Assembly: GCF_048403405.1 (NCBI RefSeq)
Contig: NZ_CP183135.1
DNA length: 64,000 nucleotides
Direction: 5' to 3' (one strand)
From: Escherichia coli
GTDB taxonomy: Bacteria > Pseudomonadota > Gammaproteobacteria > Enterobacterales > Enterobacteriaceae
This document shows positions 44,846-47,110 of the stretch, one piece after another. Numbering within the stretch: the stretch's first letter is position 1; the number at the start of each line of letters is the position of its first letter. The translations under genes and the position numbers were made by a program. The notes beneath the pieces were generated by a model. That model was not told the DNA's origin. It did no database searches and saw only the letters and a program-made list of their open reading frames with translations.

Positions 44846-45586
44846 ATGAACAATGTCATTCCCCTGCAGAATTCACCAGAACGCGTCTCCCTGTTACCCA
44901 TTGCGCCGGGGGTGGATTTTGCAACAGCGCTCTCCCTGAGAAGAATGGCCACTTCCACGGGGGCCACACCGGCCTACCTGCTGGCCCCGGAAGTGAGTGC
45001 CCTTCTCTTCTATATGCCGGATCAGCGTCACCATATGCTGTTCGCCACCCTCTGGAATACCGGAATGCGTATTGGCGAAGCCCGGATGCTGACGCCGGAA
45101 TCATTTGACCTGAATGGAGTAAGACCGTTTGTGCGGATCCTGTCCGAAAAAGTGCGTGCGCGACGCGGACGCCCGCCAAAAGATGAAGTGCGACTGGTGC
45201 CGCTGACAGATATAAGCTATGTCAGGCAGATGGAAAGCTGGATGATCACCACCCGGCCCCGTCGTCGTGAACCATTATGGGCCGTGACCGACGAAACCAT
45301 GCGCAACTGGCTGAAGCAGGCTGTCAGACGGGCCGAAGCTGACGGGGTACACTTTTCGATTCCGGTCACACCACACACCTTCCGGCACAGCTATATCATG
45401 CACATGCTCTATCACCGCCAGCCCCGGAAAGTCATCCAGGCACTGGCTGGTCACAGGGATCCACGTTCGATGGAGGTTTATACCAGAGTGTTTGCACTGG
45501 ATATGGCTGCCACGCTGGCAGTGCCTTTCACAGGTGACGGGCGGGATGCTGCGGAGATCCTGCGTACACTGCCTCCCCTGAGGTGA
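44846..45586 (+). CDS. int: tyrosine recombinase / integrase associated with the RepFIB replicon
   Basis: 246-aa ORF with C-terminal catalytic signature ...[40 protein letters not shown] (R..HxxR..Y). Confidence 0.8.
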
Positions 45587-45599
45587 CGGCATACGCGCT

Positions 45600-45870
45600 T
45601 CCTTATATAAGCTGTGGTCAGCAGAACAGACATAACATAAGCTGGAGCATGTATATAAGCTGTAGTGAGTAAGTCATGTTTTATGAAGGGAGCAATGCCT
45701 CAGCATCAGGTTACGGGATCACTTACGTAAGGGACAGGCAGATGGCAGCTCAGCTACAGACAGCACTGCAGGAAACAGAATATAAACTGCAGTGAGCAGA
45801 CCACTCACTGCACCGGTTAATATAAGCTGTAGTCAGTAAAGGAGCGCTCTTCACTGACTACAGTTTATGT
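45600..45870. repeat. RepFIB iteron cluster downstream of repA
   Basis: Repeated units TATAAGCTGTGGTCAG / TATAAGCTGTAGTGAG / TATAAACTGCAGTGAG / TATAAGCTGTAGTCAG. Confidence 0.55.
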
Positions 45871-46848
45871 TCAGCGGGATTTGAAGAGTTTTTCCAGGTC
45901 ATCCAGCGTGATGCCCAGTTTCTCAAGCAGGGCAAGCTTCTCCGCCATCTCCGGACTGACTTTTTCCGCAGGTGAAGGTTGCAACGGATTTTCCTTACTC
46001 TCGTCATTCGGCGCTTTTAACCGGGGACGCCGGTAGTGAATACAGAAGAATTTTGTCCGCCCCCGCTGGATCTCCGTGTAATCAAGATATCCAATCTCGC
46101 GCAACTGCTCCATTGCCCGTCTGACCGTCTGGTTCTGGGAAAATACAGGAGACTTCAGATTGAGGCGTGCACGCAGCCGCGCCAGCGATATCGGTGCCGG
46201 ATCCCGGGGCAGGCTCTCTATAAAGGTGTAGAGTGCCTGGGCGGACTCCCGTCGCTTCAGGGCATTAATCGCCTTAAGCTGGAGAAGGACTTTTCTGTCA
46301 AACTGGTACAGTTCAAACAGGCGGGGATCGGCCTGTAACTGCACAATATCCCGCTCAGTATCGTAGTAAGCTGACTGTACCAGATGGGTGATATATTCCC
46401 GGGTGTGCTTCTCATCGGTACGGGAAAACGAAATCACGGTACCGGCAATGCGCTTCAGGGAAGGGCTGATGCGCTCACGCAGCCTGCGGGATGACTGGCT
46501 TGAAGGTATACCACACAGTTTTGCAAACTCAACAAAAGGCAGTTCAACTTTGTCACCAATCACGTTATGGCGGGCAAAGGAATGAATGATCCCCACCCAG
46601 GTCTTGAAATCATTATCCATATCCAGGCGGGGGCCGGTGATCTCAACCTTATCGAATCCCTCAGCACGGGCCAGGGAAAGACGTGTCAGCTCTTCCGTGG
46701 CATCAGTACGTGACAGTGTATTTTTTTTACTGTTCTTCAGTGATTTAAGGGTCGGTACAAAAACGCCCAGACGCATCAGCGCCACAGGTTGTACGGTGTT
46801 GTTATTGTTTGGTGTCAGTGTCACCAGCTCACCGGAGGACTTATCCAC
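45871..46848 (-). CDS. repA: RepFIB replication initiator RepA (325 aa)
   Basis: [54 protein letters not shown]...; flanked on both sides by iteron-like repeats. Confidence 0.9.
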
Positions 46849-47110
46849 CTCGCCGAACAGTTTTTTGATGTCTGAATTTTCGTTTTCCAGAAAGCCTCCA
46901 GCCTGTGGACAGTAAAAGAATAAACAGAAAATCGTGTGTCAGAACTCCGCTAACTGACTGAAGAAAAACCTGCAGCCTGTATTTAACAACTGAGTCTGGC
47001 ATACTGACCATAGTTTATGTCATTAACTTACTTCAGTATATGGATTACTGAATACAGCTTATCATTAGCATGTTACAGTTTATCAGTAACATGCCACAGC
47101 TTATGTGATC
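46849..47110. repeat. RepFIB iteron / origin region upstream of repA
   Basis: Repeats CAGTTTATG / CAGCTTATC / CAGTTTATC / CAGCTTATG spaced along the interval. Confidence 0.45.

Follow-up and report, generated by a model that had tools for sequence, protein, structure and literature searches.

In the plasmid origin oriR of phage P1, a DnaA box, five short repeats containing GATC and five origin iterons are followed by rep and by control iterons downstream of the gene. In the RepFIA replicon of mini-F (ori2-repE-incC), the initiator gene likewise lies between origin iterons on its upstream side and control iterons on its downstream side. Here we analyzed a stretch of 64,000 nt of Escherichia coli DNA (NCBI RefSeq assembly GCF_048403405.1, contig NZ_CP183135.1; from here: the window), in which a preliminary description made from the letters alone had placed a RepFIB replicon at positions 44846-47110. 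We consider it about 95% probable, judging from the sequence, that the region at about 45600-47230 constitutes an intact basic RepFIB (IncFIB) replicon belonging to the clade that includes P307. Its replicon type is iteron-controlled theta, built like the phage P1 plasmid origin and the mini-F RepFIA replicon. As such, the module is a textbook case that is already known and holds no novelty. Our own evidence concerns sequence identity, anatomy and statistics, namely an intact open reading frame (ORF) with a CTG start, a GGAGG ribosome-binding site (rbs), the iterons, a cluster of GATC sites and a DnaA box.

Experiments on the FIB replicons of F, pO157 and P307 have been published that address the start codon, the importance of the rbs, the displacing effect of the iterons downstream of rep, and the link between the upstream set and the origin. 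They established that FIB rep starts at a CTG codon, whereas most GenBank records annotate a GTG 14 codons further downstream (PMC11983097). The CTG start was first shown for P307 by N-terminal sequencing, and a CTG>CTC change abolished replication of the pO157 FIB replicon (PMC11983097). The FIB copy of plasmid F is defective on its own because it carries the rbs GGAAG in place of GGAGG, while the sequence GTCCACAGGCTGGAGGCTTTCTGGAAAAC around the rbs marks a further FIB clade, the one that includes P307 (PMC11983097). With regard to the iterons, the upstream copies BCDD'D'' go with the origin, and the downstream block EFGHIJ alone displaces an FIB plasmid whereas BCDD'D'' does not; the displacement by EFGHIJ supports Rep-mediated handcuffing between both iteron sets (PMC11983097). 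A DnaA binding site is drawn in the FIB replicon in Fig. 3 of the same study (PMC11983097).

The DNA of the window agrees closely with these reference replicons. Positions 44583-47469 are 97.1% identical to plasmid F (NC_002483, 35356-38238) over 2887 nt, and positions 44603-47257 match pO157 Sakai (NC_002128) without gaps at 97.5% identity over 2655 nt; the match to F and pO157 spans rep and both iteron blocks. The counterpart gene of pO157 Sakai bears the annotation 'RepFIB (P307 replicon)' and is adjoined by a recombinase gene. F, pO157 and the window have the gene order int-iterons-rep-iterons-GATC-DnaA box in common. The 29-mer of the P307-including FIB clade (PMC11983097) is present exactly at 46882-46910 on the minus strand. 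The comparison to P307 was made via this 29-mer and via pO157 Sakai, which stands in for a direct alignment to P307 (M26308). Three plasmids that possess a 100% identical 2.9-kb segment were typed by MOB-suite as IncFIA plus IncFIB, with or without IncFIC, and plasmid F as IncFIA, IncFIB and IncFIC. At the level of the entire window, a single mismatch in 64,000 nt (window position 41690; 99.998% identity) separates it from the E. coli plasmid pCREC571-1 (NZ_CP183118.1, 24799-88798, reverse strand), and the 2.9-kb module matches at least 5000 plasmid records in PLSDB, chiefly from Escherichia and Klebsiella. The assignment to FIB in the preliminary description was thus borne out by the Rep protein (see below), by the DNA identities to F and pO157, by the exact clade 29-mer and by the MOB-suite typing. 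These results confirm an F-type (IncF) multi-replicon resistance/virulence plasmid as the carrier of this stretch.

The conventional Rep ORF lies at 45871-46848 on the minus strand, starts with GTG and encodes 325 amino acids (aa). Its product matches the Pfam family Rep3_N (PF01051, WH1) with 43.4 bits against a cutoff of 22.4 over residues 99-210 of the GTG ORF, and 324 of its 325 residues are identical to the FIB Rep of F; a search against NCBIfam gave no model match for Rep. The reading frame remains open upstream of the GTG as far as 46938. If translation begins at the CTG at 46888-46890, the resulting N-terminus is the one printed in Figs. S2 and S3 of PMC11983097. By homology to the experimentally tested FIB replicons, the true Rep start is this CTG, 14 codons upstream of the GTG. 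Hence, the RepA gene that had been placed at 45871-46848 exists as a GTG ORF with a Rep3_N match, but its start has to be moved: rep (repA/repB of RepFIB), coding for the iteron-binding initiator, extends over 45871-46890 on the minus strand, from the CTG to the TGA stop codon at 45871-45873, and yields 339 aa. For annotation, this means that the usual GTG start is 14 codons short and that the true start is a rare CTG. Counted from the CTG, Rep is identical to the F protein at 338/339 positions and to the pO157 protein at 336/339; residue 304 is Q here and P in both F and pO157. The rbs GGAGG is located at 46895-46899 on the minus strand, 4 nt before the CTG. pO157 and P307 have this strong version, F the weak GGAAG; the hexamer before the CTG reads TGGAGG here, AGGAGG in pO157 and AGAAGG in F.

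The preliminary description had reported two types of repeat flanking repA. Repeats are real on both sides, but they are not of two types: TATAAGCTGTAG and CAGCTTAT/CAGTTTAT are reverse complements. Since CAGCTTAT/CAGTTTAT equal the reverse complement of ATAAGCTG/ATAAACTG, there is a single repeat family in two orientations, an iteron of about 20 bp with the consensus ACATAAGCTGTAGTCAGTAA, of which five clear copies lie upstream and six downstream of rep, in addition to one weak copy, K. Relative to the sense of rep, iterons B-D'' and E are direct and F-K inverted. In a repeat search, one family of five downstream copies was found at 45605, 45635, 45653, 45780 and 45820, and a second family of five was composed of a copy at 45853 and the upstream copies at 47003, 47026, 47047 and 47089. 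The fifth upstream iteron, at 47066-47085, was added by a scan with a position-weight matrix (PWM), in which the 11 clear iterons scored 16.7-27.0 and the best unrelated site of the window 12.7. Because the PWM was built from the same iteron copies, a search with the 11-mer ATAAGCTGTAG served as the independent test. With at most one mismatch, this 11-mer occurs seven times in the window, all within 45607-47104, compared with 0.73 occurrences expected, and none of 100 shuffles reached seven. This version was used instead of a search with up to two mismatches, which was too loose (19 hits versus 12.4 expected).

The origin-proximal iterons, all on the minus strand, are D'' (47001-47020), D' (47024-47043), D (47045-47064), C (47066-47085) and B (47087-47106). 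Their start-to-start spacing of 23, 21, 21 and 21 nt corresponds to about two helical turns. Downstream of rep, the control iterons J (45605-45624), I (45635-45654) and H (45653-45672), which are identical to the pO157 copies, as well as G (45780-45799) and F (45820-45839) are on the plus strand. These two upstream and downstream groups were detected by the repeat search, by the PWM and by the 11-mer and are labelled in Fig. S2 of PMC11983097. Iteron E (45851-45870, minus strand) abuts the rep stop codon and is inverted relative to iteron F. The weak copy K, ATATAAGCTATGTCAGGCAG, is situated within the int ORF at 45210-45229 on the plus strand and is likewise labelled in Suppl. Fig. S2 of PMC11983097. 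The iterons of the window correspond one-to-one with those marked in that figure. Ten of the 11 clear iterons are identical to their pO157 counterparts or one base off; in comparison with F, iteron C differs at four positions and iteron I at two. Iterons E and F form a 29-nt inverted repeat with 83% complementarity (45813-45877) directly after the rep stop codon, where a terminator scan returned a stem of 15 pairs from 45863 to 45827. The E/F inverted repeat resembles a terminator hairpin and could combine termination of rep with the binding of Rep dimers.

On the origin side, the preliminary description had ended the replicon span of 44846-47110 too early, as the origin continues past 47110. 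Five GATC (Dam) sites follow at 47153, 47164, 47175, 47186 and 47199 (47153-47202), spaced by 11-13 nt. This cluster, which is part of the origin, is the densest of the window (5 per 60 nt versus 4 per kb overall) and is conserved in F and pO157. Beyond it, a DnaA box with the perfect consensus, TTATCCACA, occupies 47216-47224 on the minus strand and is invariant in F and pO157. The origin iterons are therefore adjoined by a DnaA box and clustered GATC sites, the architecture of a P1-type origin. Iteron J (45605) and the DnaA box lie about 1.62 kb apart, in agreement with the P307 minimal replicon of about 1.6 kb. With these features, the limits of the replicon are fixed at about 45600-47230.

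The main alternative to an active FIB replicon is a module that, as in F, is silent or crippled and secondary, the plasmid being maintained by FIA and/or FII replicons outside the window. Each plasmid examined that shares the segment at 100% identity holds more than one replicon (IncFIA and IncFIB, some also IncFIC), so that FIB is to be regarded as one of several backbone replicons, and the F copy is defective alone (PMC11983097). However, the defect in F maps to the rbs single-nucleotide polymorphism GGAAG, whereas the window has GGAGG like the functional replicons of pO157 and P307 and shows no lesion in the rep ORF, in any iteron, in the DnaA box or in the GATC cluster. Owing to its strong rbs, the FIB copy described here is expected to be capable of autonomous replication, unlike the F copy, and we consider a silent module unlikely. 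The expected autonomy matters for plasmid-curing strategies and for those based on displacement by incompatibility.

The gene next to the downstream iterons, int (44846-45586, plus strand, 246 aa), encodes a tyrosine recombinase, as the preliminary description had stated: the ORF product matches Pfam PF00589 (Phage_integrase) with 54.7 bits against a cutoff of 27.1. It is a paralogue of ResD, the RepFIA-region resolvase of F, with which it has 47% identity over 257 aligned positions (E = 4e-66), and differs from the int product of F by 2 aa. The catalytic motifs are kept, i.e. R (TGMRIGEA), HxxR (HTFRHSY) and H...Y, and the C-terminal EVYT is shared in the alignment with ResD. The gene is linked to the FIB rep in F, in pO157 and in this plasmid. 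Most likely, the enzyme resolves plasmid multimers. In the comparison with F, there was no similarity to the F rfsF region outside coding sequences, and no resolution site was identified.

The proximity of int raises the alternative that the repeats J-E are primarily a recombination or resolution site of the recombinase, comparable to crs beside rsd, and not replication-control iterons. A repeat-containing crs site next to rsd has reportedly been found in Salmonella virulence plasmids by Krause and Guiney in 1991, a work that PMC5065971 cites. In the window, the repeats set in 19 nt past the stop codon of int, a gene that itself contains one copy and whose product is a recombinase of the ResD/Rsd type. 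Yet the iterons of the origin, beyond rep, consist of the same 20-bp motif, and the ability of the pO157 EFGHIJ block to displace the FIB replicon by itself is a replication-control phenotype (PMC11983097). We regard a primary role of these repeats in resolution as very improbable.

When the replicon, read as RepFIB, is set against its more distant relatives, the origin layout is common to P1 (oriR-repA-incA) and this replicon. P1 RepA and the Rep described here are 46.5% identical over 76% of the query (E = 5e-71), and the RepA of SSU5 is 65.6% identical. The iteron sequences of P1 differ from those in the window, as do the incompatibility groups (IncY versus IncFIB), and P1 has parAB beside repA where here the tyrosine recombinase adjoins rep. 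Assignment of the replicon to a P1-like or SSU5-like phage-plasmid (IncY or an FIB-like prophage replicon) rather than to an IncF plasmid, for which these Rep homologues, those of related phage-plasmids and the P1-like origin layout could be cited, is refuted by Rep identities of only 46-66% as against 99.7% to the FIB Rep of F and by the surrounding 64 kb, which match a resistance/virulence plasmid of E. coli at 99.998% identity and in which no phage genes are annotated. Mini-F RepFIA has a ResD-type recombinase nearby as well, and it is flanked by GC-rich elements that resemble the ColE1 primosome assembly site (pas). RepE represses its own gene via an inverted-repeat operator at the promoter, whereas the inverted pair E/F of the FIB replicon follows the stop codon.

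Several observations weigh against a functional, P1-like FIB replicon. Iteron K, with a PWM score of 13.1, is barely above the background of 12.7 and by sequence alone would count as marginal. A standard sigma-70 promoter scan found no promoter on the minus strand, the strand of rep, and the best candidate of a relaxed scan had 8/12 matches. Because neither scan gave a good sigma-70 promoter, we claim no coordinates for the rep promoter; in P307, it is said by Spiers and Bergquist (in work dated 1992) to overlap the origin-proximal repeats. A phmmer search of Rep against PDB sequences returned no relevant structure, only spurious hits at E of about 0.8, and by BLASTP there was no detectable similarity between the FIB Rep and RepE of F (E = 0.063). 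It is only the Pfam WH1 match that suggests the two-winged-helix architecture of Rep. Finally, plasmids that share this segment have FIA and FII/FIC replicons at other places, so that replication in vivo may not be driven by FIB.

Within the window itself, the preliminary description had called FIB the only replication function, and this proved correct. In the PGAP annotation of the matching pCREC571-1 stretch, one of the 72 features is a replication initiator. A scan of the window at the Rfam gathering thresholds gave no control RNA of the RNAI/CopA type, only RNA-OUT and the attI/aminoglycoside leader, and tblastn of F RepE and of the F FIC regulatory RepA against the window found no match.

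Combining this anatomy with the published work, we infer a mode of action in which Rep monomers and dimers would divide the labour. The 339-aa Rep would be translated inefficiently from the CTG behind the GGAGG rbs. As a monomer, it would bind the five phased iterons B-D'' beside the GATC-rich stretch and the DnaA box and, together with host DnaA, open the origin. By occupying the promoter-proximal iterons, Rep would also repress its own gene. The six or seven downstream iterons (E-K), most of which are inverted, would titrate Rep, and handcuffing of the downstream with the origin iterons would stop initiation as the copy number rises, thereby also setting FIB incompatibility. Dam methylation of the GATC cluster may play a part as it does in P1, and the ResD-like recombinase would most likely contribute by resolving multimers of the plasmid.

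About 85 nt beyond the DnaA box, and outside the described minimal replicon, there is a GC-rich element of 53 nt (47309-47361, minus strand) that is similar to the primosome assembly sites of ColE1 and mini-F. It has the form GCTTCCTCGC-N32-CTGCGGCGAGCACT, and the version GCTTCCTCGC-N32-CTGCGGCGAGC is common to the window, to ColE1 (1311-1360) and to two sites beside F repE. The 10-nt and 11-nt ends of the element recur in ColE1 between ori and rop, twice flanking repE/ori2 of F, and in the FIB region of F. When four copies were aligned, the outer stem proved invariant, and compensatory change was seen at three pairs, a number to be read in view of only four sequences. The fold of the single sequence as an RNA or single-stranded DNA hairpin was not significantly better than that of shuffles (z = -1.6). 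The counterpart in ColE1/pBR322 is presumably the n'-type primosome assembly site (ssiA), for which a search of the literature returned no coordinates, and similar sites have reportedly been described near mini-F ori2. Judged from its sequence, the element may provide the FIB origin with an accessory site for priming. Tentatively, and with the odds rather against it, we suggest that it could act as a PriA-dependent site of primosome assembly (single-strand initiation); as a separate idea, iteron K, which is likewise not counted in the described minimal replicon, might tie resolvase expression to its occupancy by Rep. If the element were a PriA site, FIB would couple opening by Rep and DnaA to PriA-dependent priming, as do ColE1 and mini-F ori2.

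To the right, the replicon is flanked by a patchwork of elements. An N-terminal istA fragment of the IS21 family (47594-47923) and an istB fragment (47916-48023) are followed by a umuC-like DUF4113 fragment (48084-48597), by IS1A (48777-49474) and, from 49830, by sitABCD. On the left, between a gene for a PapB-like regulator and the FIB module, an ORF of 336 aa rich in hydrophobic segments is located at 43002-44012 on the minus strand; it matched no Pfam family, and related plasmids annotate a hypothetical protein of varying length at this place. Two genes of the window are frameshifted pseudogenes in the pCREC571-1 annotation, one for a TonB-dependent receptor of the haem/transferrin type (38671-40640) and the other iucD of aerobactin synthesis (61022-62355). 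The sole mismatch between pCREC571-1 and the window falls outside both. The two Rfam matches, at 12-93 (attI/aminoglycoside leader, class 1 integron) and at 14930-14999 (RNA-OUT of IS10), are in keeping with the annotation of pCREC571-1, which lists dfrA17-intI1 and tet(B)/Tn10 remnants. Positions 20001-45000 of the window match NZ_CM132303.1 (367631-409413), an E. coli record of 5.03 Mb, with 100% identity and 95% coverage, which suggests a chromosomally integrated copy of the plasmid region or an assembly join.

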